Below, piece by piece: positions 7,276 through 39,129 of a stretch of 64,000 nucleotides of DNA (positions are counted from its first letter, which is position 1; each line of letters begins with the position of its first letter). The translations under genes and the position numbers were made by a program. Below the pieces are notes generated by a model. The model was not told the origin of the DNA. It saw nothing but the letters and a program-made list of their open reading frames with translations, and made no database searches. Source of the stretch: Actinomycetes bacterium (GTDB lineage Bacteria; Actinomycetota; Acidimicrobiia; Acidimicrobiales; JAJZXF01); the NCBI GenBank assembly GCA_021791755.1, contig JAJYWA010000003.1, positions 6,719-70,718 of the forward strand. The letters run 5' to 3'.

Positions 7276-8810
7276 TACAGGGCGGCTCCTGCGATCGATA
7301 GGCCGAAGCTGGCTTCGATGAAGGCAAAGTCGGTGAGGATGTCCCCCTGGAAGGCTCGAGGCAGCAGGGCGAGGTTGTGGAAGGACGCGGGCCGTGACAA
7401 AGTGCTCTCCAGCCGGCCGCCTCGCACGCTCACGAGGCTCAGGATCTCCCCATGTGGGCCCTCCGACCAGCCAATGTTCTCGCCATCCCTTACATCGATC
7501 GTCGTGACTCGTGAGCTCTGATCGCGCATGCCGGCAGCGTCGCCAGCCGCGACGAGCTCTGAGATCGCCTTGCATGCCATCTTGAACGAGGCATGAAGCT
7601 CCTCCTGGCGGACCTCCAAGCGCGCGAGAGCATCGCCAGCGCTGCGGGTTGCCGGCGCTTGCGGTTCCAGCTCGGCGTAGGCGGCATAAGGGCGGTCGGT
7701 TCTGGTGTCTTCGACGATGCCTGATGCCCGTGCCAGCGGACCGACTGCACCATGGTCGCGTGCTGTCTTCTCGTCGATGAGCCCGGCGCCGCGCAGGCGA
7801 TCGACGAACGACGGGGTTTGAAGCGCTGCTTCGGTGTCGGACATCACTGCCTTCTCGAGGTCGTGGAGCGCAGCGTGAGCGTCGCCAAGTGTGGATGCGG
7901 CGGGAGCGGCCACGCCGCCGGGCGCCACCACTCCGCGCCCGAAACGACTCCCGCAAAGATCAGCTCTCAATCTCTGGGCGTGCTCCTTGCCGATGCCGAA
8001 GCGGGCGTTCGCCACTGCGAGGCCGGCGGCTTCGGTGAGGCGAACGGCAACGTCGAGGTGGTTGGCAATTCGTTCGAGCTCGGCGTGAAGCACCCTCCAG
8101 AGTGCGGCTCTCCGCGGGATGCTGGCGTCGCAGATCCGCTCGACTGCCTGGCAGAAGGCTATGGCGTGCGCCACCGAAGCCACTCCCTCGATCCTTTCGG
8201 CGAGCAGTGCTCCGGTCTCGATGTCTAGCTGGTCGAAGCGCTCCTCGATCCCGCGGTGCTTCGGGTGGGGCCTGACTTCGAGATGGGGGATCTCCTCGCC
8301 CGGGGTCTCGATCATGTACTCGACCGCCTCGAACACCCCGGAGCGCACCGGACCGTATGGCATGGTGAACATTCCTTCGCCAAGGACATGGCTGGTCGTG
8401 GGGCCGGAGCCTTGTGAGATCAAGGGGCGCAGGTGGGGGTGGCCTACCGGGATGATCCCGTACATATCGTGCATCTTTCGTTCGTACCAGTCGGCAGCAG
8501 GCGCCAAGCGTGTCAGTGAGGGGACGGAGAGCACTTGGCCACCCGCGGCAGACCTGTCGGATGACACCGAGGATGGGACGTAGGACGAGAGGACATGGAT
8601 GCTGCTCGGGCGACCTCGGCCGCACAAGATCGCGTAGATCTTTCCTGCGCGTGAGCCGTCCGGTCCAGGCGAGCGACCCGGGCCGAGGAGGCCGGCGAAG
8701 CGCATTCCCTCGCGTGCTCGAGAGGCAACTCTCTGGGCCAGATCCCAGGCGGGCGCCTCTGAGACGGTGATCGCCGGCTCGGGGACGCCAGTCGTCTGAT
8801 CCGCGTTCAT
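7275..8810 (-). CDS. HycE/NuoC-NuoD-like large subunit without [NiFe] cysteine ligands
   Basis: 511 aa. NuoC-like block WYERKMHDMYGI. NuoD/HycE-like blocks PYGPVRSGVFE, PHPKHRGIE and LCGSRFGRGVVAPGGV. There is no CxxC motif anywhere in the protein. Confidence 0.85.
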   Translation of the reverse strand: MNADQTTGVPEPAITVSEAPAWDLAQRVASRAREGMRFAGLLGPGRSPGPDGSRAGKIYAILCGRGRPSSIHVLSSYVPSSVSSDRSAAGGQVLSVPSLTRLAPAADWYERKMHDMYGIIPVGHPHLRPLISQGSGPTTSHVLGEGMFTMPYGPVRSGVFEAVEYMIETPGEEIPHLEVRPHPKHRGIEERFDQLDIETGALLAERIEGVASVAHAIAFCQAVERICDASIPRRAALWRVLHAELERIANHLDVAVRLTEAAGLAVANARFGIGKEHAQRLRADLCGSRFGRGVVAPGGVAAPAASTLGDAHAALHDLEKAVMSDTEAALQTPSFVDRLRGAGLIDEKTARDHGAVGPLARASGIVEDTRTDRPYAAYAELEPQAPATRSAGDALARLEVRQEELHASFKMACKAISELVAAGDAAGMRDQSSRVTTIDVRDGENIGWSEGPHGEILSLVSVRGGRLESTLSRPASFHNLALLPRAFQGDILTDFAFIEASFGLSIAGAAL

Positions 8811-28987: not shown

Positions 28988-29248
28988 ATGGGTGGAGCCA
29001 GCGTTCTGCACATTTTCCCGATGGTTGGGGTCTTGGTCGGATCCGACAAAGTTGTGGGGTTGGCATTCTGGTCGACGGTGTTTTTTATCTTGGGCGTCTT
29101 CGAGATCGCTGCACGGAGCCATGGGCGCCTCGTCCGACGCTCGCCGAGCATTGTGGACCTGATCAGGCGGTACCTGCGTCAACCTGTTGTGCGATGTGTC
29201 GCGATTGCTGTGTGGTTGTTCGCTGGTTGGCACCTGTTCTCTCATTGA
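28988..29248 (+). CDS. hypothetical small membrane protein
   Basis: 86 aa from an internal ATG (MGGASVLHIF) with 3 hydrophobic segments. Lies 20 nt after the previous gene. Confidence 0.4.
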   Translation: MGGASVLHIFPMVGVLVGSDKVVGLAFWSTVFFILGVFEIAARSHGRLVRRSPSIVDLIRRYLRQPVVRCVAIAVWLFAGWHLFSH

Positions 29249-29299
29249 TCTTCTCATTGATCTCATCGATCTCAAACTTGGGCTCATCTCTGGGCCAGC

Positions 29300-30110
29300 T
29301 CAACCGGTCATCGCTAAAGCTGCATTGCAGACGTCGTGAGCGGTTGACCAGTGGAGGGTGCGGCGGGGCATGGTGTTGAGGCGGCGCACGATCACGCGCC
29401 GATCCTCGGCCACCTCCACGTACCACGCACCATCGACGGCGCAACCAGGCACACGGTACAAGCAGGCCGAGCGACCTGCTCGACCTCGCAGCGCTCTCAC
29501 TCCGGATGAACCCGTAGCCGTAGCCGTAGTCGTAGCCTTTCTTGGTCACGAAAGCGACGGCAGGCTCAGGGCATACCTTGCCGTGCGAGCAGCCGGAGAA
29601 GAGCGAGTAGACGCTCGGCAGGTCAATGTCGGCGAACATCTCTTTGATCGGCCAACTTGCCGTCGGAAGCCTTTCATTCCCACAGACCAACACTTGCCAT
29701 GGCTTTGAGGAGTCCAACCGCGGCGCCTGTAATCCGAGCCCCTTCGCATACTCCGCAACCTGCTTCGTGGTTTCCGTGTAGGTGGGGTGCGCCTCGACAG
29801 GGACACCGTCGGCGATTGCTGTCTTCTCTCCTTGTCGGGCGCTCCTGTAGCGCATCGCAATCATGCGCTCGACACGGTTGACGTGCTCGATGTCTGGCTC
29901 CAGGAGCCACCAAGCCTGACTTGCCACCTCGACAAGGGCACGAGTCACTACGGAGGCAGAGACGGCAGAGCTCCCGTTCTTCGTCATCGCAGCGATGGCC
30001 GTCGCATGATCCAGGGCGACCATGAAGTTCAGTATGGCGAGGGCATTCGCCGAACGCACGGGTTCCTCGCCCCACGCTCCGACGGGGCAGTGCTCGCTCC
30101 GAGCACGCAT
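29300..30110 (-). pseudogene. hypothetical protein, apparently frameshifted
   Basis: The N-terminal ~190 aa read well (ALAILNFMVALDHATAIAAM...AWWLLEP). After the (CGTAGC)4 repeat at 29513-29536, high third-position GC moves to another frame that ends at 29300. The nominal ORF tail runs antisense into gene 28988-29248. Confidence 0.45.
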
Positions 30111-30201: not shown

Positions 30202-30924
30202 CTAGCTTCGACAACTGACGAATGCGCGGATGTGCGCTTTGGCAGTGGCTGCAAATTGCCGAAAGGACAAACTCGACGATGGGAAAGTGACCTTCGTAGG
30301 TGTGCTGTTCGTTGCAAGCGTCAGACAGCAAGCGCTGTACTTGCGTTCAAGCACCAACCGGTCACATAGCACCTCATATCGCTTGGCATACGACGAACCC
30401 TTGAAGATCGGATCAACTGGGAAGTACGGTTCCACGTTGCGAACCGGCGCATGGACCTTTGCGCAGTCCTCTAGGAGGAAGAAGTAGCCGAGGAAAGGCG
30501 CCGGATTCTTACCGAATCGACCTTCCCGGTATGCCGTCCAAATGTCTTCGGCGTTGCCGATGGCTTCTTCCGTTCGGTTGTTGAAGTTGTTGCCAAAGCT
30601 CGGACCGACCTGCGACTTGAATTCCACAGCCACAAGGAGCTGGCCGTCAACGACGACCAGCAAGTCCCACTTCTTTTCCGGTCGGTAATAGCCGGGCAGC
30701 TCGAGCGCCGTGCCGACCCTGACATGGCCGGGCTCGAGTCCGGCATCGACGAGTACGTCTGTGAGGAGAACTTCGAGCGCACCCATCTGCGCTCCTCCCG
30801 TGACCGCACCCCGGGCGCCTGCGTCGATCCGTCCAGAATCGATCTGACGCTGCTGTTGTCGGGCACGAGAGTCCCAGAGCTCCTGGACGGCATCCTGAAA
30901 CCGCTCATCGAGGTTCGCTAGCAC
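30202..30924 (-). CDS. type II restriction endonuclease, XhoI/PaeR7I-like
   Basis: 240 aa. I recognise the block WDLLVVVDGQLLVAVEFKSQVGPSFGNNFNNRTEEAIGNAEDIWTAY as the XhoI/PaeR7I family (from memory, unverified). The GTG start overlaps the methylase stop by 7 nt. Confidence 0.65.
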   Translation of the reverse strand: MLANLDERFQDAVQELWDSRARQQQRQIDSGRIDAGARGAVTGGAQMGALEVLLTDVLVDAGLEPGHVRVGTALELPGYYRPEKKWDLLVVVDGQLLVAVEFKSQVGPSFGNNFNNRTEEAIGNAEDIWTAYREGRFGKNPAPFLGYFFLLEDCAKVHAPVRNVEPYFPVDPIFKGSSYAKRYEVLCDRLVLERKYSACCLTLATNSTPTKVTFPSSSLSFRQFAATAKAHIRAFVSCRS

Positions 30925-32660
30925 TCGAAGGCCCTTCGGGCATCTTCGATGCCGTAAGCGGCGAGCGCTGCCTCCGTAGCCTCGGGGACATTTCGATCAC
31001 GGAATGCATTTCGGAGACGAGCCTGGATGTTGCTGGCTATGGAGTCCGGTTCAGGCACTCGGATGCGTCGAAGGTATTGCGCCTGGAACCGAAGCGTCCC
31101 GCCTCGCATCTTCACGCAGTAGGCTTCGATGAAGAGCTGAGCAACACGGGAGAGCAGAAGGCCACCGAGAACTTCAAGGTCCCAGCGGTCGGACGTCAGG
31201 TAGTAAAGGTTGTGGTGCGGATACGTCTCACCCCGGTCGAGCGTTGGGTTGCTCATAAGCTTCATGTCCGGGAAGTAGAGCTTTGGCTTCCCGGTCAGGC
31301 CGTGGTTCACACGATCAATCGTCCTGTACCAGCCGCGAGCATTGCGCTTGGCGATATTGCGCCGGGTTAGCTCCTCGCGGTGGTCGTCTAAGTAGCGCCG
31401 GAGGAGAGGGTGCGAGTCGAGATCGACGAGCCCCTTGCCGTTCTGCCACGGATCTACGAGGTAGTGGCCCGACCAGCGCAGTTGACCAGTCCTCGTGTCT
31501 GCTGCCATCGCGAGGGGGAGCAGGCGGTCTGGCTCGACGACCGTGCTGTCCGTCGTGATGTACACGCTGTCGTTGCCCGTAGCAACACCGATGCCCACCT
31601 TGGTCCCCGTACGTTCATCTTCGAGCGGGTGGAGCTCGTCCTCCAGACGTTGCAGCACGGCGAGCTGATCGGGCCCGACTGAAGGCCACGGAGTGTGCCC
31701 GCTGAACCAGTGCGGCGCACGGGTTGCGGTGAAGCCTTGGAGCATCACGTCTCGTCCGTCAGCAAGATCGACGAGCGACTTGGCAATCGTGGAACCCGCC
31801 GGAGTCACACCGGAATCAGCTCCCGCATGGGCTACGACGACGTTGTCCTGCTGTGCTCGGCGAATGACGATGACCGCTGGATATGCTGATACTTCGTTCT
31901 CGAACGCCGGAGCGTCGTGCATCTCGATGACGACGTCCATGCTGAAGAGTTGTGCAACCAGGCGGCGCAGCTCTGCTCCGTATGCCGAGCGCATCCAGCG
32001 GTCGGCGCAGATGAACGCGAGCGCACCACCTTCAGCGAGCTGTCGCAGGCCCGCTTCGATGAAGCCGACGTAGATATCGCAGCGACCAACCATCGTCGGA
32101 AAGAGCCGGCGGTAGGCAGCGAACGAACCCTCCGGAAGGTCGTCATAACGGATGTAGGGAGGGTTGCCGATGACGAAGTCAGCCCTGTGGTCCTTCCTGG
32201 AGAGAAGGAGGTAGTCGCCAACGGCGACCCAGCCTTGCGCTATGGAGCGAGCCGTTCTCGCGTCGATTCCCCGATGGCGCAACTCCTGGACGGCGAGGTC
32301 GATGACCATGCGTGCCGACCGCTCATTGAGTTCGTAGGCGCGGAGAGCATGTCGGGCCTCGGAGAGAGAACGATCGTGCCTCTCAAGGGAATCGAGGAGG
32401 CGCCGGATCATCGGAAGCAGGAACGCTCCTTCACCTGCCGATGGCTCAACGGCATGCCGGACTGCAAGGTCGTTTTCTGGGACATATCCCACAAGGTCGA
32501 GGATCAGATCAACGACCCACTCCTTCGTGTAGACGATGCCCTTCGGCTCACCGACGGCGGTTATGCCCTCGATTTCGGGATCAGGCTCGGAGGGCTGAAT
32601 CGCACGACCCACGAGATCGACGTCGATGCCGAGGTCAAGTTGGGTCTGCTGTGCCGTCAT
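30918..32660 (-). CDS. N6-adenine DNA methyltransferase (Eco57I/TaqI-like gamma class)
   Basis: FVIGNPPYIRYDD (the NPPY motif) and an AdoMet block VEPSAGEGAFLL. The start is set at ATG 32660 (MTAQQTQ). The in-frame extension to 32786 lies inside the duplicated JAB-associated segment. Confidence 0.8.
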   Translation of the reverse strand: MTAQQTQLDLGIDVDLVGRAIQPSEPDPEIEGITAVGEPKGIVYTKEWVVDLILDLVGYVPENDLAVRHAVEPSAGEGAFLLPMIRRLLDSLERHDRSLSEARHALRAYELNERSARMVIDLAVQELRHRGIDARTARSIAQGWVAVGDYLLLSRKDHRADFVIGNPPYIRYDDLPEGSFAAYRRLFPTMVGRCDIYVGFIEAGLRQLAEGGALAFICADRWMRSAYGAELRRLVAQLFSMDVVIEMHDAPAFENEVSAYPAVIVIRRAQQDNVVVAHAGADSGVTPAGSTIAKSLVDLADGRDVMLQGFTATRAPHWFSGHTPWPSVGPDQLAVLQRLEDELHPLEDERTGTKVGIGVATGNDSVYITTDSTVVEPDRLLPLAMAADTRTGQLRWSGHYLVDPWQNGKGLVDLDSHPLLRRYLDDHREELTRRNIAKRNARGWYRTIDRVNHGLTGKPKLYFPDMKLMSNPTLDRGETYPHHNLYYLTSDRWDLEVLGGLLLSRVAQLFIEAYCVKMRGGTLRFQAQYLRRIRVPEPDSIASNIQARLRNAFRDRNVPEATEAALAAYGIEDARRAFEC

Positions 32661-32734
32661 GCGGTCGCCTCGCACCCATGGTTGTCGCGTGACCAGGACG
32701 TTCGGGCTCCCTTGAAGAGCAGCGATGGAGTGGT

Positions 32735-33410
32735 CATGGTTCGATGTTACGAGAACGGTGTGACGCTCTACCGGATATCCGCTCAAATCAGGGCCGGTGC
32801 AGGAACACCGACGTGTAGCCGCTCGTGGCGACCGCCACCAGGTGATCCACCAGAGCGAGCCCGTGACGGCCGTACGCAGCGGCTATGGCCCGGAAGGACG
32901 CCCGTTCGGCTTCCGTGGCGCTGAGCGGCCCGTCGCGGCGATAGCGGACGAGGATAGCGCCCGTCGCGCGGCACGCCTGGGCTCCGAGGAGCACCGGATG
33001 GGCGGAGAGCCGGACCAGCCTGAACCCAGCCGACGGCGACGACCACATGCCCGACGAAGCGGTGGCGGTCGTCCATGTAGACGACGAGGACCAGGTCCTC
33101 CCGGCGGGAGCGGACCAGGCCCCTTGCGACCCGTGCAGCCGATGCCGGGTCGTCGATACGCCTGGGCAGATTGGGCCCTGCCTCCGGAACAGCGTCCTAA
33201 TGGGACGCCGTTTGGCAGGAGCGTCCGGTGAGTGCTCGGAAGAAGAAGTGGAGTGAGGTTGTTGGGACCATCGTGGCACCCTCCAGTGAGTGTGGGTTCA
33301 TGGAGGTGACCCACACCCCTGGCCATGGCGGAGCGCCCGAGGGAACATCGTTCTCGAGCACGTCTTGAGGACGCAGCACGTCGCACGCGGCAGTACCAAG
33401 GTGCGGAGCC
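32735..33410. repeat. dispersed direct repeat, copy 1 (JAB-like gene plus a conserved upstream ~130 bp)
   Basis: Shares long near-identical runs with 35073-35460, for example CCGACGAAGCGGTGGCGGTC(G/A)TCCATGTAGA, GGTCACCTCCATGA and TTACGAGAACG(G/C)TGTGAC. Confidence 0.75.
32788..33180 (-). pseudogene. RadC/JAB-like gene, frameshifted and catalytically degenerate (copy 1)
   Basis: One frame reads LVVYMDDRHRFVGHVVVAVG. The next frame reads RLSAHPVLLGAQACRATGAILVRYRRDGPLSATEAE...LVDHLV. The HNHPSG position reads RYRRDG. The frame change is near 33012-33024. Confidence 0.55.
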
Positions 33411-33485: not shown

Positions 33486-33895
33486 CTATCCGCTGTCCAT
33501 GCGGGCCAAGAAGTCCCCGGGCCTCTCGATAATGATGCCGTGGAAGGAGCCTAGGCTGAGGAGATCCTCGTCGCCTGAAACGATGCAGTCCGCACCTCCC
33601 TTGGCGGCGGCTTCGAGCACGCGGTTATCGCTCTCGTCGCTGACGACTGCGAAAGCATCGGATGGAAACACCACTACGGCGGCGGCTTCAAACAGCTCCG
33701 CGAGCCGCGAGCCGTTCGGGATGGCGTTCGCCAGCTTCGGATAGGCGAGGACGCGCCGTAGCTCAGCAAGTAGCGGCGGGCTCGACACCAGCGTGATCCG
33801 ACCATCGAGCGAGCATCGAGCACCAGAGCGGGCGATCCCTGCCAGCCCATCCCGGACACGATCACATTCGTGTCGAGAACAACCCGCAGCATCAC
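33486..33895 (-). pseudogene. PIN-family toxin (TIGR00305-like) disrupted by an 11-bp duplication
   Basis: The N-terminal frame reads MMLRVVLDTNVIVSG...SPALVLD. The C-terminal frame reads GRITLVSSPPLLAELRRVLAYPKL...DNRVLEAAAKGGADCIVSGDEDLL. Removing 11 nt at 33804-33814 restores ...LVLDGRITLVSS... Confidence 0.7.
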
Positions 33896-34173
33896 GCGAC
33901 GGTCCGAGCCGCCGCGATCGCCTCATCAATGACGGACACATCAAGGCCAGCATTAGCGACGCTCTTGCGCACCTCCGTCAAGCGCTCTCGCAGCTCTGCT
34001 TGAGCGACCTGCCTTCGGGCCTCTGTCAGTCGCTCGTACTCGGCTGGGCTGACGATCACCGCCAGCGCCTCTCCCCGGCGCGTCAGCACGACTGGCTCGT
34101 CGTCGGCTGCCACTTCCTCGGCAATCTGCCCCAGTCTGGCTCGGGCTTTATCGACCCCGATTGTTCGGTCCAT
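33892..34173 (-). CDS. Phd/YefM-type antitoxin (intact)
   Basis: 93 aa (IGVDKARARLGQIAEEVAADDEPVVLTRRGEALAVIVSPAEYERL). The stop overlaps the PIN ATG (ATGA). Confidence 0.75.
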   Translation of the reverse strand: MDRTIGVDKARARLGQIAEEVAADDEPVVLTRRGEALAVIVSPAEYERLTEARRQVAQAELRERLTEVRKSVANAGLDVSVIDEAIAAARTVA

Positions 34174-34994
34174 CGCTGTACTCCTATCGTTCTACCGTAC
34201 TCTTAACAGTACGGAAAACCTAACTGGATGTCAACATGGGTCGTCCCTCCAAGCAATGATCCGAGTTGACGTTTCCTCACGCGACAGTTCGGGCCACGGG
34301 CGCCGACGCCTGACAACCCGCCCACTGACGCGGCGCAGACGAGGAACGCATCCAGTGGGGACCTGAAGGTAACCCGCCCTGAGCGTCATCCCTAGTCCAT
34401 CCCTACAACTGTTCGTTGAATCGATCTGCGGCGAGTCCGGCGAAAACAGCCCACAGCCGCGAAAACCCAGCAAATATGCTGGAGTCCAGGGCTCCGGTGT
34501 GCCACGAACGAAAGGAGAGGCGTGAAGTTATGACGTAGGTAACGCTGCTGTTTTCGATGCTGTGCGAGAGATGAAGGATGGCCCTTCGGAGTCGCCCTGC
34601 GGGGAGAGGCTCCAAACCGCCGTGTGCTGCGTTGGCTGAAGACCGTCGTGGTAAGCGATCACGGAAAAGGCACGCTTGACGTGTCAGGTGGGACTGTCGA
34701 GCGATGGCAGCGCTTGTTCATCGACGAGATTGACACTGTTACCGCTGACCATCGCCCCACCTGGCAGACCCCGGACAAGTACAACCCAGCCCGCCTGTCC
34801 AATAGCGCAGTCGACATCGCCCACACCATCTGAACTGAACACGCTCCCCTGACGACAGTGCCTAGCCTGCTGCGGGAAATTGAGGGCGAAGCCTTTGCCC
34901 GACCTGCGGAACCTAGGTTCGTAGGTAGCCCGGTAGATGTTCGGTGCGATACCGCCCCTCGGGATGCGGTCGAGTTCCTGAGCGATCGTTGGGT

Positions 34995-35291
34995 TCATGT
35001 GTTCTGTTCCTGTTGTGGCCTGACATGGAACACTGCCCACTGTACCGCAGGACCGCCTAAACCTGATCGCTCACTGTTACGAGAACGCTGTGACAGCCTG
35101 CGTGAACTAGGCGATTTGTCACAGGCCGATCTGACAGCGACGATGGCGGAGCCGACGAAGCGGTGGCGGTCATCCATGTAGAGGACGAGCGTGGTGCCCT
35201 CTCGATGATGGCGGAGCAGGTCACCTGCGAGTTGTGCAGCAGCCGCAGGCCCGTCGATCCGACGGGGGAGGTTGAGCTGTGCTTCGGGCAC
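34995..35291 (-). pseudogene. RadC/JAB-like gene remnant (copy 2, truncated)
   Basis: PEAQLNLPRRIDGPAAAAQLAGDLLRHHREGTTLVLYMDDRHRFVGSAIVAV matches copy 1. Homology then stops, so the C-terminal JAB half is missing. Confidence 0.5.
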
Positions 35292-35460
35292 AGCGTCATG
35301 AGCGGCGGGTGAACGTCCGGATGAGGTTGAAGGTTGTCGGGATCATCGTGGAGCTCTCCAGTGATCGTGGGCTCATGGAGGTGACCAACTGCCCCAGGCA
35401 AGGGCGGAGCGCCCGAGGAGGAATGGTCCTACGAGCACGTCTTGAGACCGAAGCCCCACT
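35073..35460. repeat. dispersed direct repeat, copy 2 (internally deleted)
   Basis: Same orientation as copy 1. It lacks about 270 bp, which correspond to the JAB C-terminal half. Confidence 0.75.
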
Positions 35461-35594
35461 GCATGGGGTGGTACGTGTCTAGGAGTGAAGCCCCTCGACT
35501 GATTGGGCGCCCACATGGGCCGATGCACCGCTCATCAGCCGCGTTGACCGATGCCACGAGAAGGCGCCACACTGCGTACACAAAGGAGACACAA

Positions 35595-35851
35595 ATGGCC
35601 AAGGTGAAGAGCGTCGGCGTCCGTGAGTTCCGCAACAACGCCAGCACGTACCTCTCTGGCTCGGAGACGATCGCTGTCAACGGCACGGCAAGGTGATCGG
35701 GTTCTACATCCCCCTCGATCGGGACGAGGACGAGGTCCGGCGTGCTGTCGCCCAACTCGGTGCTGCTGTCGGCCAGGTCCTCGAAGAGACGGGCATGACC
35801 GAAGAGGAGCTGGCACGGGCGTTCGACCTGCGACGGCCCATGCCTGAATGA
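35595..35851 (+). pseudogene. Phd/YefM-like antitoxin with a 1-nt frameshift
   Basis: AAAGGAG RBS. MAKVKSVGVREFRNNASTYLSGSETIAVN hits a stop at 35694. The -1 frame continues RHGKVIGFYIPLDRDEDEV...RPMPE and ends in an ATGA overlap with the next gene. Confidence 0.65.
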
Positions 35852-36296
35852 TCATCGCTGCAGATGCCAGCGTCCTCGTTGGCGAGTTGCTTCGGAACGG
35901 GAGGCGCGATCTCATCTTGCACCCACGGGTGCAGCTCGTGGTGGCCGAGCACCAGTGGAGCGAGGTAGAGCACGACCGAGAGCGGCGCCTCTCAATCATG
36001 GAGTCCCGGGGCCGCATCACTGCCGAGCGCCGGAACCTCCTCGAAGGAGCAGCCCAACACCTCGTCGATGTCCAGGGCATCGAAGTCGTCCCCCGTAGTG
36101 CCTACGAGCAGTTTGAGGAGGCAGCTCGTCGCCGGGTCTCCTACGAGACCCCAACGACTGGGCGCCGGTCGCCCTCGCCATGGCCCTCGACGCAGGCATC
36201 CTCACCGGAGACAATGACTTCCTCGGCTGCGGCTGTCCCACCTGGACGGTCGAGACGCTTCAGGTGGAGCTGGGGGAGCCAGGAGCGAGGGACTGA
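35848..36296 (+). pseudogene. PIN-domain toxin with a frameshift
   Basis: MIIAADASVLVGELLRNG... in frame 1. After about 36127-36140 the PIN C-terminus DPNDWAPVALAMALDAGILTGDNDFLGCGCPTWTVETL reads in another frame and ends at 36296. Confidence 0.65.
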
Positions 36297-36397
36297 CAAC
36301 CCCGGAGACCTTCGGTACCGCTGCCCGTTACGGCCATCCCAAGAAATCTTCTCTTGTTGGGCTCCTGGTGTCGTCCGACAGCTTTCGCCTTCGAGCA

Positions 36398-37387
36398 CTA
36401 CCAGAAGGGCCGCTGCTGGAGCTCGTCGAGACGGAGTGGGACGGACTCCCTGTAGTCTTGGACGCTGACCTTGGCGAGCGGAAGGATGCGCAGTGGTAGA
36501 AGCTTCCCACCAGCGGTGGCTTTGGCGAAGGCCTTCACGCGAGCGGCCCGCCACTTGCGAAGTGGATCCTTCTCGGCGAGTGAGAGCGGATCATCTATCG
36601 TGATGACGATCAACTCGAGCGCCTGGGGTGAAATCCTGTCGCCGGCCGTTACCCGGACGCGGATCTGCTCTACTCGGTCCATCCACGCGGCGCCACGGCT
36701 GCGTTCTCGTCGAATCAACGTGTCGAGGTCGTTCGTCATGTCGAGGGCGACGTAGTCGTGTAGCGCCGGGCGGCGAAGCTTGATCGCCAACCGATCAGAG
36801 AACCCGAGGCAATCCTCCTCTGTGAGAAAGCCCCGGGCTGGGTGCTGGTCGACGAGCAGCGCTTTGCTCACGGGAAGCGAGATCCGGAGATCAGCGGCCC
36901 AATCTCCCATCGGTTGCAGGTTGTTCACGATCACCATATCGATCGTGCGACCATCCCGGACGTCGTTGGCGCGGGATTGTGGGAGGTCCGTGAGGTTGAC
37001 GATTGGAGCGACTTGCACTGTCGGGTGTCGTGCACCCGGCCCAGTGGCCACCACATCGCAGGTCTGCGAGACGATGATCCCAAGCTGCTCGGCGGGGACT
37101 TCGCCCTCTTCGACGTCGAGTGATTCCCGTGCGGTCACCCATCCTCCGTCGGGTTGCGGGTCGAGTCGAGCGCCCGACAGCGGATCCCTACCGTGTTCGC
37201 TGACTCCCCAGAAGGCTCTCAGTCCGCTGACTATGTCACCCTGACGCCACTGGTCGAGGGCAGTGGACACCTCGGGTTGATGCAGCCAATCGAAATCGAA
37301 ATTGTTGCCGACGACGTCGCTCCCTACCAGGGGTTGGGAGGGTGTCCACCCCGACCCAGGCGGCGCCGGTTCCGAACCGGGAGTCAC
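36398..37387 (-). CDS. hypothetical protein, third gene of an unknown three-gene operon
   Basis: 329 aa with good coding statistics. GTG start in a GTGA overlap with the upstream gene. Notable motifs are WRQGDIV and GIIVSQTCDVV. I recognise no family. Confidence 0.7.
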   Translation of the reverse strand: MTPGSEPAPPGSGWTPSQPLVGSDVVGNNFDFDWLHQPEVSTALDQWRQGDIVSGLRAFWGVSEHGRDPLSGARLDPQPDGGWVTARESLDVEEGEVPAEQLGIIVSQTCDVVATGPGARHPTVQVAPIVNLTDLPQSRANDVRDGRTIDMVIVNNLQPMGDWAADLRISLPVSKALLVDQHPARGFLTEEDCLGFSDRLAIKLRRPALHDYVALDMTNDLDTLIRRERSRGAAWMDRVEQIRVRVTAGDRISPQALELIVITIDDPLSLAEKDPLRKWRAARVKAFAKATAGGKLLPLRILPLAKVSVQDYRESVPLRLDELQQRPFW

Positions 37388-38223
37388 TTCTTGCGGCGGC
37401 GGGAAGGGCTGACAGTCTGCGCCGAGGTGGGCTTACGGAACTCGCGGTGATGCGTGGTCAGCTCGGCATCGGATGCGAGACAGTCGCCGCCGACTGAGAG
37501 GAACCGGGCGTAGTCGGGGGCAGCTCGTAGGGGTCGGGGCTGGGCCCTCAGCGACTCCAAGAGGTCATCGAAGCGACCGTCGATGAGCTGGGCTCGACGG
37601 TCAGGGCGGGCGAGCAGCCACTGGCCAGGTGGCGCGTCGAGCAGATCCTCGAGATCTTCGGTGAACTGCGCGAGTGCCCACAGTCGACCTTGGCTAGCGA
37701 CGCGAGGCCGAGGAGCATCTGGCTGGCTCCAGGTGTAGTAAGCGCTCCGGCTCACGTTCGCGGCGTTGCAGATATCCCGCAGGGGAAGGCCGAGGCGCCA
37801 GCTCAAGCTCTTGATGGCTGCAACGACGTCCTCCGCACCGGAAGTCAACCCTGGTGGCTCAGCGCTGAACGGAAGCTCTTCTGAGGCCACTTCGACTGCT
37901 GGAGCAGGAGTTGCCACCACATGCAGCAGCAGAAGGGTGCGATGCATCGCTTCCGCCAGCGGTTCCCCGACGGAGGTCGCGACGACACCACGGCCAACGT
38001 CTGAGATCGACGTGCCGGTCGAGTCCGCGCGGGCGACGACGAACAAGAGCAACGGCGCCATCGGCTCGGCGAGGGCGATATCGAACTGAGTGAGGACTTT
38101 CTGCAGGTCATGGTCGGACACGTTTCGGGCCGGGGTGTGTCGAGACACAAGTTGGTCCTGGAACGAGGCCAGCTCCTCATAGTCGCCGAGCGTCGATCCA
38201 GTCCGCTCCAAGGTCATCGTCAT
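37384..38223 (-). CDS. hypothetical protein with a central helix-turn-helix-like segment
   Basis: 279 aa. LPLRDICNAANVSRSAYYTWSQ looks like an HTH. The following RLWALAQFTEDLEDLL...WLLARP resembles Xre/ParS-type antitoxin C-domains (weak). ATGA overlap with the upstream gene. Confidence 0.65.
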   Translation of the reverse strand: MTMTLERTGSTLGDYEELASFQDQLVSRHTPARNVSDHDLQKVLTQFDIALAEPMAPLLLFVVARADSTGTSISDVGRGVVATSVGEPLAEAMHRTLLLLHVVATPAPAVEVASEELPFSAEPPGLTSGAEDVVAAIKSLSWRLGLPLRDICNAANVSRSAYYTWSQPDAPRPRVASQGRLWALAQFTEDLEDLLDAPPGQWLLARPDRRAQLIDGRFDDLLESLRAQPRPLRAAPDYARFLSVGGDCLASDAELTTHHREFRKPTSAQTVSPSRRRKK

Positions 38224-39107
38224 CGCAGCGCGCCTTCGCTCGCGGTTGTCGCCTCCTCGTCCGTCTGCCCGTCCGACTGCAATTGGTGGCGGTAGTCCTC
38301 GGTGATGACCGACTGGAACAGTGACGCTGCCGTCCGGTTGAGCACCTCGGCTCGGTCAGCGAGCTCAGCCACGTTGAAACTGCTGGGCGTGCTGTCGTAG
38401 CAGTCGATGTCGAGCAGGTAGCTCACCGACCGGGCGCTCCTCTCGTCGATGAATGGTCCGTGACGGAGAATGGCCCCCTGATTGTCGGAGAAGGCGAGGT
38501 CCACTTGCTGCTGGGAGCCTTTCACTAGGTCGCCCAGGTGAGAGTGGCAGATCGGGCCGAGGAATCGCTCGTCGATGCGTCCCTTCCAAGCGGCGACGGC
38601 TGCAGCGGCGGGATCGACGAACCGGTTCACGTAGCGCAGTCCAATACGGATCACGACCCGCGGCGTGGCCAGCTCATCGACGGATTCAAGCACTGCTTCG
38701 AGTGACGGCCGCATCGAGACGCTCCAGCGATGGTAGGTCGCAGTTTGGAGCACTGCCGCCTCCGGAAAGAGCGTCACTTGGATCGTGCCATCAGGATTGG
38801 CAAGCAGCCAACCCTTCGAGACAACGTCGATGGTGGCAGCCACCCCAGGCGTCAGGTTGACTCGCTGGGTCTGACGCGGCTCGAGGTGAGCCAAGTGCAG
38901 ACCGGCGGCTCCGAGGCGCTCGCGCATTTGGAGCCCAGCATCATCGGGCAGGCTAGGAGCGCCGGCGAAACGGACTTCGGCGATGGCGAGCTCCAGCGGC
39001 GCCTGAGCGAGCAGAGTGCGATCGGCCCCAGGCAGGCCGGCCAGCGGCCGGGTCTCCTCGCGTTCCTCCCCCAGCACTTCGTCGTCAGAGCTCATAAAGT
39101 TCGACAT
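38220..39107 (-). CDS. TIGR04255-like hypothetical protein, first gene of the three-gene operon
   Basis: 295 aa. LELAIAEVRF and RIGLRYVNRF blocks are what I recall as hallmarks of the uncharacterised TIGR04255 family (unverified). Confidence 0.6.
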   Translation of the reverse strand: MSNFMSSDDEVLGEEREETRPLAGLPGADRTLLAQAPLELAIAEVRFAGAPSLPDDAGLQMRERLGAAGLHLAHLEPRQTQRVNLTPGVAATIDVVSKGWLLANPDGTIQVTLFPEAAVLQTATYHRWSVSMRPSLEAVLESVDELATPRVVIRIGLRYVNRFVDPAAAAVAAWKGRIDERFLGPICHSHLGDLVKGSQQQVDLAFSDNQGAILRHGPFIDERSARSVSYLLDIDCYDSTPSSFNVAELADRAEVLNRTAASLFQSVITEDYRHQLQSDGQTDEEATTASEGALR

Positions 39108-39114
39108 TAGCTGG

Positions 39115-39129
39115 ACACTGTGACAGTGT
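39115..39129. promoter_or_regulatory. perfect 7-1-7 palindrome immediately upstream of the three-gene operon (candidate operator)
   Basis: ACACTGT G ACAGTGT lies 8-22 nt upstream of the ATG at 39107. No Shine-Dalgarno sequence lies between them. Confidence 0.35.

Follow-up and report, generated by a model that had tools for sequence, protein, structure and literature searches.

Architecture of the operon

The window analysed here is a 64,000-nucleotide stretch of contig JAJYWA010000003.1 from an Actinomycetes bacterium of the order Acidimicrobiales (assembly GCA_021791755.1). In our comparisons the closest relatives bearing a name are Ferrimicrobium and Acidimicrobiaceae, which points to a probable source in the class Acidimicrobiia. 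The minus strand of the window carries three adjacent genes, here called A, B and C (Table 1), which are the subject of this study and which a preliminary description of the same DNA had presented as an intact, overlapping operon. The reading frames and their junctions are as described there: the stop codon of A and the start codon of B overlap by four nucleotides (gcgATGAcg), and the stop of B and the start of C do the same through a shared GTGA (aagaaGTGActc). These overlapping stop and start codons constitute translational coupling of A, B and C. The frames are clean, with guanine-cytosine (GC) fractions of about 0.70, 0.47-0.51 and 0.73-0.76 at codon positions 1, 2 and 3, the normal coding pattern for this genome. 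The motifs quoted for the three proteins were all found, namely LELAIAEVRF and RIGLRYVNRF in A, LPLRDICNAANVSRSAYYTWSQ in B, and WRQGDIV and IVSQTCDVV in C.

The longest open reading frame (ORF) of A starts at an ATG, 39107, that sits inside a candidate -10 box described below, and for this reason ATG 39095 is the likelier start; it gives a protein of 291 amino acids (aa), as long as that of the database call (P0121). The database call of C is also shorter, with 290 aa from a later start; the longer N-terminus is kept in close relatives.

Conservation and distribution of the trio

A motif scan for C, run on one genome per species, identified 15 loci among 185,579 species genomes. The order A, B, C was recovered by tblastn in 14 of the 14 actinobacterial genome loci that have upstream DNA, often with the 4-nucleotide overlaps retained. 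The same succession of A, a middle gene and C was observed on three metagenome contigs (L022, L030 and L031), and no examined locus that contained C together with DNA upstream of it departed from this order. Searches begun from A or from C also placed the trio on 10 plasmids from five phyla (Actinomycetota, Cyanobacteriota, Alpha- and Gammaproteobacteria, and Deinococcota). Their hosts are Acinetobacter baumannii, Klebsiella pneumoniae, Vibrio furnissii, Pseudomonas putida, Sinorhizobium, Sphingomonas, Chroococcidiopsis, Meiothermus, Kocuria and Paenarthrobacter. The middle genes of these plasmids encode proteins of about 165-230 aa, with a helix-turn-helix (HTH) match in every one scanned. 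The co-occurrence of the three genes thus recurs in other genomes, contigs and plasmids.

Comparison of the window with a relative of 80% identity gave ratios of nonsynonymous to synonymous substitution rates (dN/dS) of 0.15 (A), 0.27 (B) and 0.16 (C), which show purifying selection on each gene of the trio. With gene order and coupling kept across five phyla, these values agree with the earlier suggestion of a selectively maintained, co-translated module.

The module was not found in 5,426 complete Escherichia coli genomes, which may explain why E. coli-based screens overlooked it. PADLOC v2.0.0 likewise contains no model for A or C of the window, nor for their homologues from Klebsiella, Vibrio, Pseudomonas and Acinetobacter. 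GenBank phages gave no match for A or C, and the search of IMG/VR returned just two distant homologues of A and none of C; a phage origin was rejected. We conclude that the trio is genuine and conserved, a module of three genes that has so far not been described.

A candidate operator that co-varies with protein B

Nearly every locus has, upstream of A, two direct repeats of 6-7 bp, spaced by 11-12 bp, that bracket a TANNNT hexamer, a form of the actinobacterial -10 box. In the window this element reads TGTCCA gctaa TGTCGA (39117-39101). Its repeats, TGTCCA (39117-39112) and TGTCGA (39106-39101), lie 11 bp apart, the second with one mismatch to the first, and the -10-like hexamer TAATGT (39109-39104) stands between them. 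The arrangement is present in 17 of 19 actinobacterial loci, compared with 1-5% of shuffled or random genomic windows, and the repeats are perfect in 12 of the 19, compared with 0.3% by chance. ATG 39095 lies 8 nucleotides past the -10 box, a spacing shared by the relative L030, and an mRNA beginning with this codon would be leaderless or nearly so. A sigma-70 promoter scan and a terminator scan found nothing.

The sequence of the direct repeats changes together with the recognition helix of B from locus to locus. In Acidimicrobiia and Blastococcus, a helix of the form [SK][RK]S..Y.W accompanies the repeat GTCCA[AG]; in Micrococcales and Nocardioides, IKRRT[FY]YSW accompanies AGTGCAT. Kocuria, Paenarthrobacter, Chroococcidiopsis and Sphingomonas combine VSRRxxHxW with GTGTGAA or the reverse complement TTCACA, and Klebsiella, P. 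putida and Meiothermus combine VSRQxxYxW with GTGTAAA. Because of this co-variation, we consider that there is good comparative evidence for B as a protein that would bind the repeats and regulate its own operon.

A perfect palindrome just upstream of the operon had been noted earlier as a further mark of the module. The palindrome exists and overlaps the first repeat (about 0.09 would be expected by chance in 160 nucleotides, on our rough arithmetic), and it was rejected as an operator because relatives do not keep it upstream of their operons.

In the family alignment, B consists of a variable N-terminal region, a central HTH and a conserved helical C-terminal region. The window's B itself has no Pfam match, in NCBIfam it shows a weak match to an IS3-type HTH (residues 142-173), and PADLOC yields only weak matches at the level of the HTH; all other NCBIfam matches of B and C are negligible. 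PF20432, an Xre-like antitoxin HTH, is the best family for 11 of 24 B members, always below threshold (best E 8.2e-5), and scores 18-22 bits against a cutoff of 25.8 on B homologues of other loci. A profile search of the PDB with B gave no meaningful match and did not retrieve the solved MbcA, ParS or Xre structures. The HTH-like segment of the preliminary description is present, and the Xre/ParS-like tail that it had also proposed is not confirmed; since the DUF2384 domain was not found, B is not filed as an Xre, MbcA or ParS antitoxin.

Protein C has a predicted toxin-type fold

As had been stated, C belongs to no recognised family, with nothing in Pfam, NCBIfam or PADLOC. Its close homologues, about 130 in number, are all without names and, where a source is given, all from Actinomycetota. 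The family is far larger than this close set, since an exhaustive profile search among 1.84 billion representative proteins returned 1079 clusters (50% identity) at E<=1e-3.

The AlphaFold2 model of C has a mean predicted local distance difference test (pLDDT) score of 82. When it was compared with the PDB by Foldseek, the top 35 matches were all MazF, Kid or CcdB chains, with probabilities of 0.94-1.0, template modelling (TM) scores of 0.52-0.66 normalised to the target and a best E of 2e-3. PemK-like proteins are among the best structural matches of C in an independent viral library. The N-terminal domain is thus predicted to adopt the MazF/CcdB barrel with its C-terminal helix. The C-terminal ~120 residues gave only weak matches to nucleotidyltransferase-like folds, none of them informative. 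HTH-bearing B proteins occur together with this long form of C, and on the strength of that co-occurrence one may speculate that B docks on the C-terminal domain.

Sequence comparison gives a different picture from structure. No PemK or CcdB Pfam match was obtained in 20 C-family members at E up to 10 or in 68 members at E up to 1. An hhalign comparison of the C profile with the MazF proteins of E. coli and Bacillus subtilis (the latter sequence checked against 4me7) returned a probability below 1%, which is not significant, and a PDB profile search with C found nothing. Because the sequence-profile tests fail, the link between C and MazF is drawn at the level of the fold only, and C was not filed as a MazF/PemK family member.

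C carries a signature of its own. In a cross-phylum alignment of 16 proteins, C110, D111 and R206 are the sole invariant residues besides the start methionine, and Q49 and G50 are nearly invariant across phyla; C110 is also invariant in 68 diverse members of the family. Judged by eye, Cys110, Asp111 and Arg206 do not seem to correspond to the active-site Arg and Thr of MazF ribonucleases.

Protein A, a member of the orphan family TIGR04255

The proposed assignment of A to TIGR04255 was clearly recovered with NCBIfam (101.1 bits against a cutoff of 30, E 8.5e-29), residues 33-275 covering profile positions 2-250 of 252. A full-text literature search found no paper on this orphan family or on the proteins of the module. 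Within the trio, A is the best conserved, with about 50% identity where B has 38%. Its AlphaFold2 model (pLDDT 91.7, predicted TM score 0.85) consists of two similar halves made of strands and helices. Nine residues are invariant across phyla (R46, Y125, R154, G156, R158, G184, D233, D235 and F264), and the polar cluster that they include suggests a catalytic or ligand-binding site.

Foldseek matched A best to the Trypanosoma AdoMetDC prozyme; the E-values were good, but the TM score was 0.25 and the root-mean-square deviation about 19 Å, and for this reason no fold was assigned. A, like B and C, matches no Pfam family. A PDB profile search with A gave no meaningful match, and neither Pfam, PADLOC, the PDB profile search nor Foldseek likened A to a known toxin or modifying enzyme.

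Exchange and loss of the third gene

TIGR04255 genes also occur in loci where another gene takes the last place. On the viral contig L037 (1-1906), TIGR04255 and a small protein are followed by an HNH endonuclease (30.8 bits against a cutoff of 21.4), and on the Thermus plasmid pTB1 (L021, 4788-6482) by an unannotated HEPN ORF (27.2 bits against a cutoff of 22); both loci lack a C homologue. In Methylocystis (L027) and on a prophage-like IMG/VR contig (L036), TIGR04255 and a small middle protein precede a third protein of 183-192 aa. To the eye, this protein retains three motifs of the N-terminal domain of C (QGD, TQxCD and RxGLP) and lacks the C-terminal domain; neither the middle nor the third protein of L036 has a Pfam match. 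In Crinalium, TIGR04255 stands with two unrelated small partners. A constant TIGR04255 protein with an exchangeable last gene, whose recognisable alternatives are of nuclease type, is a pattern typical of conflict systems, and it lends support to C as the effector.

The last gene has also been lost alone. In Blastococcus mobilis DSM 44272 (L008, ~8170-8180), C has an in-frame stop in the variable loop before SQTCD. A Rhodococcus plasmid carries insertion sequences after B and yielded no trace of C. In both loci A and B are intact. These two cases fit C as the harmful component.

The same observations bear on a different division of labour, in which A would be the active enzyme, acting as the toxin itself or as an enzymatic antitoxin that chemically alters C, for instance at the invariant cysteine of C, and C would be a substrate, adaptor or sensor. 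The high conservation of A and its low dN/dS speak for such a role, as do its family-wide invariant Arg/Tyr/Asp cluster, which resembles an active or ligand-binding site, and its constancy while the third gene varies. The variable slot, however, holds toxin or nuclease domains (HNH, HEPN and the MazF-like fold), as is usual for effectors; it is C, not A, that is found inactivated while the other genes persist; and A resembles no known toxin or modifying enzyme. We therefore regard an enzymatic A acting on or instead of C as rather unlikely, and retain C as the candidate effector.

Genomic neighbourhood

The restriction-modification (R-M) and TA neighbourhood reported for the window was recovered, with an XhoI-type endonuclease, an Eco57I/N6 methylase, a Phd/YefM-PIN pair and a second PIN gene (Table 1). 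The endonuclease and methylase genes (30202-32786, minus strand) form an apparently intact R-M pair. Adjoining them, a 315-aa ORF (29163-30110, minus strand) has a weak match to DUF5677 (E 1.3e-3, below the cutoff). At 33486-34173 on the minus strand, a Phd/YefM antitoxin gene (93 aa) is followed by a gene for a PIN_3 protein, a VapBC-like pair that looks intact. Only short ORFs occupy the region ~34200-35800. Inside it, a group II intron D1-D4 fragment (Rfam RF01999, 97.5 bits, complete model; 34573-34689, plus strand) is probably the remnant of a mobile intron in a decaying island. Two short plus-strand ORFs upstream of the PIN_2 ORF (35442-35696 and 35693-35851) resemble the halves of a frameshifted Phd/VapB-type antitoxin gene.

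The neighbours of the trio differ from genome to genome. The operon on L030, which is the closest long relative of the window operon, lies directly downstream of an operon of the cyclic-oligonucleotide-based antiphage signalling system (CBASS), with a patatin, two SMODS cyclases and E2-CBASS, and near an OLD-TOPRIM ATPase gene (L030 1-4180 and 12890-12969). The Ferrimicrobium locus neighbours a TIR protein, a type IIG restriction enzyme and an SLFN/AlbA protein, and L022 is flanked by ThiF/JAB, NERD and DUF6339 genes. Pooled neighbours (136 ORFs from 15 loci, scanned with PADLOC and Pfam for presence only) include MADS, Wadjet JetA/JetB, Septu PtuA/PtuB, AriA (PARIS-like) and E1-E2 proteins according to PADLOC, and TrwC relaxase, Lsr2 and AbiEii-type ATPases according to Pfam. 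On plasmids, the module adjoins relaxases, type IV secretion genes, integrases and insertion sequences.

Frequent proximity to such transfer genes, together with a candidate DNA-binding regulator as the middle protein, would also be expected if the trio were a set of mobile-element genes with a role outside conflict, such as the regulation of transfer or integration or signalling between plasmid and host. The trio nevertheless occurs in chromosomal islands without transfer genes, beside CBASS, R-M, TIR and Septu-type genes, its candidate operator sits at its own promoter, and its third gene can be exchanged for nucleases; a non-conflict role of this kind seems to us quite unlikely. An ordinary housekeeping or metabolic operon placed by chance in a variable region can be dismissed as very improbable, since despite an adjacent aldehyde dehydrogenase and GGDEF-EAL protein the distribution is sporadic, plasmids of five phyla carry the genes, the neighbours change between genomes with no conserved metabolic neighbourhood seen, and A, B and C match no enzyme family in Pfam or NCBIfam.

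Table 1. Positions of the operon, its parts and nearby genes in the window.
Feature	Position	Strand	Remarks
Gene A	38220-39107	-	ORF, 295 aa counted from ATG 39107; TIGR04255 family protein
Gene B	37384-38223	-	ORF, 279 aa; fast-evolving middle protein, candidate repressor and antitoxin
Gene C	36398-37387	-	ORF, 329 aa; no Pfam, NCBIfam or PADLOC family; candidate effector/toxin
Helix-turn-helix of B, LPLRDICNAANVSRSAYYTW	37729-37788	-	Residues 146-165; W165 invariant; recognition helix co-varies with direct repeats
N-terminal domain of C	36767-37255	-	~Residues 45-207; predicted MazF/Kid/CcdB-like fold; limits are our own reading
Cys110-Asp111 codons of C (TGC GAT)	37055-37060	-	In [ST]Q[TSD]CD motif
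C-terminal alpha/beta domain of C	36401-36766	-	Residues 208-329; from secondary structure of model
Candidate promoter/operator	39100-39117	-	Direct repeats around TANNNT -10-like hexamer
Palindrome ACACTGTcACAGTGT	39115-39129	-	Arms ACACTGT/ACAGTGT at 39115-39121 and 39123-39129, central c; overlaps repeat 1
PIN_2 ORF	35848-36468	+	Over-long, 206 aa; runs convergently into 3' end of gene C
XhoI-family endonuclease	30202-30924	-	256 bits; overlaps methylase gene
Eco57I/N6_Mtase/TaqI_C methylase	30918-32786	-	622 aa

Proposed function of the module

On balance, we lean towards the trio being a conflict module of the TA or abortive-infection kind that spreads horizontally and regulates itself. 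The defence and mobile neighbours, the predicted toxin-type fold of C and the lack of a PADLOC model for A or C all agree with the nameless defence or TA system of the preliminary description.

A possible mechanism can be outlined, in which the individual roles of A, B and C, and above all that of A, are assigned with low confidence. The operon promoter would have its -10 box between the two direct repeats, and B, to judge from the co-variation, would bind these through its HTH and repress transcription, while the stop/start overlaps seen directly in the sequence would couple translation of the three genes. C would be the effector, its predicted MazF/Kid/CcdB-fold N-terminal domain carrying the signature of Cys110-Asp111 and Arg206, and through this Cys-Asp-Arg site it would probably attack nucleic acid or another essential target and arrest growth. 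B, which is encoded directly upstream of C and evolves fastest, probably also restrains C in the manner of an antitoxin. A, the constant partner of the wider family with its Arg/Asp cluster, might, more speculatively, sense the trigger or modify the B-C pair. Plasmid loss or phage infection would then release C and halt growth.

Several observations weigh against this interpretation. For C, the relation to MazF comes from predicted structure (Foldseek E ~2e-3), with negative profile and Pfam tests (88 members), and the canonical catalytic Arg and Thr of MazF are, by eye, not obviously conserved. For B, no family member scores above threshold against the Xre-like antitoxin HTH of Pfam, and the toxin-binding domain DUF2384 (PF09722) is absent from the ~34 B proteins scanned. 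The large size of A and its conservation, the highest in the trio, are unusual for an accessory TA protein, and Foldseek offers no informative solved relative of the fold of A (TM 0.25). Many of the pooled neighbours, finally, are ordinary housekeeping genes.

A wider proposal, which we offer tentatively as a possibility, is that TIGR04255 is the constant core of unrecognised three-gene immune or addiction modules in at least five phyla. The last gene of these would be an exchangeable nuclease-type effector (MazF-fold with a new Cys-Asp-Arg site, HNH or HEPN), and the middle gene a co-evolving repressor/antitoxin that binds tandem repeats. If true, an orphan family would gain its first functional context and a fixed set of genomic partners. 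The C family, sizeable and unannotated, has a predicted MazF/CcdB fold with a different signature and may therefore have a new biochemical activity. Conjugative plasmids of Klebsiella, Acinetobacter, Pseudomonas and Vibrio carry the module, as do soil and thermophilic bacteria, and because of this carriage any part that it had in maintaining plasmids or resisting phages would matter for plasmid biology. In addition, the co-variation of operator and recognition helix offers a ready system for studying the evolution of DNA-binding specificity.

Comparison with known systems

Modular defence systems with exchangeable effectors include CBASS, Thoeris, retrons and Avs. The trio resembles them in that TIGR04255 remains constant while the last gene varies (C family, HNH, HEPN), and in its location in defence islands. 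It differs from them in having no signalling enzyme, nucleoside triphosphatase or reverse transcriptase, and no PADLOC v2 model exists for A or C.

With the Xre-RES, MbcTA and ParST systems the trio shares a protein with a central HTH, for which many members find their best, sub-threshold, match in PF20432, encoded directly upstream of a putative toxin. B nonetheless has no match to DUF2384 and possesses an additional variable N-terminal region, and its partner C is neither a RES domain protein nor an ADP-ribosyltransferase. MazEF, Kis-Kid and CcdAB are closer on the side of the toxin: the N-terminal half of C is predicted to form the MazF/Kid/CcdB barrel, the gene upstream of it (B) is translationally coupled, the operon looks autoregulated, and it occurs on plasmids and in islands. 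In contrast to these systems, sequence-level membership of C is not demonstrable; C is three times longer, with an extra C-terminal domain and its own Cys-Asp-Arg signature; the gene before it encodes an HTH protein (190-300 aa) rather than one of MazE or CcdA fold; and the trio always has a third, larger conserved gene, TIGR04255.

Tripartite TA systems, exemplified by omega-epsilon-zeta, PaaR-PaaA-ParE and toxin-antitoxin-chaperone systems, likewise consist of three co-transcribed genes with a DNA-binding regulator, and the last gene of the trio is toxin-like. The difference lies in A: a protein of 250-300 aa that has a conserved polar cluster and lacks any known relative, it belongs neither with the SecB-like chaperones nor with the small antitoxins. 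With type II TA systems in general, the trio has in common its adjacent, translationally coupled genes on mobile DNA, as seen in the 4-nucleotide overlaps and the carriage on plasmids and islands. As far as comparative sequence evidence indicates, the module would work most like a type II or tripartite TA module or an abortive-infection module.

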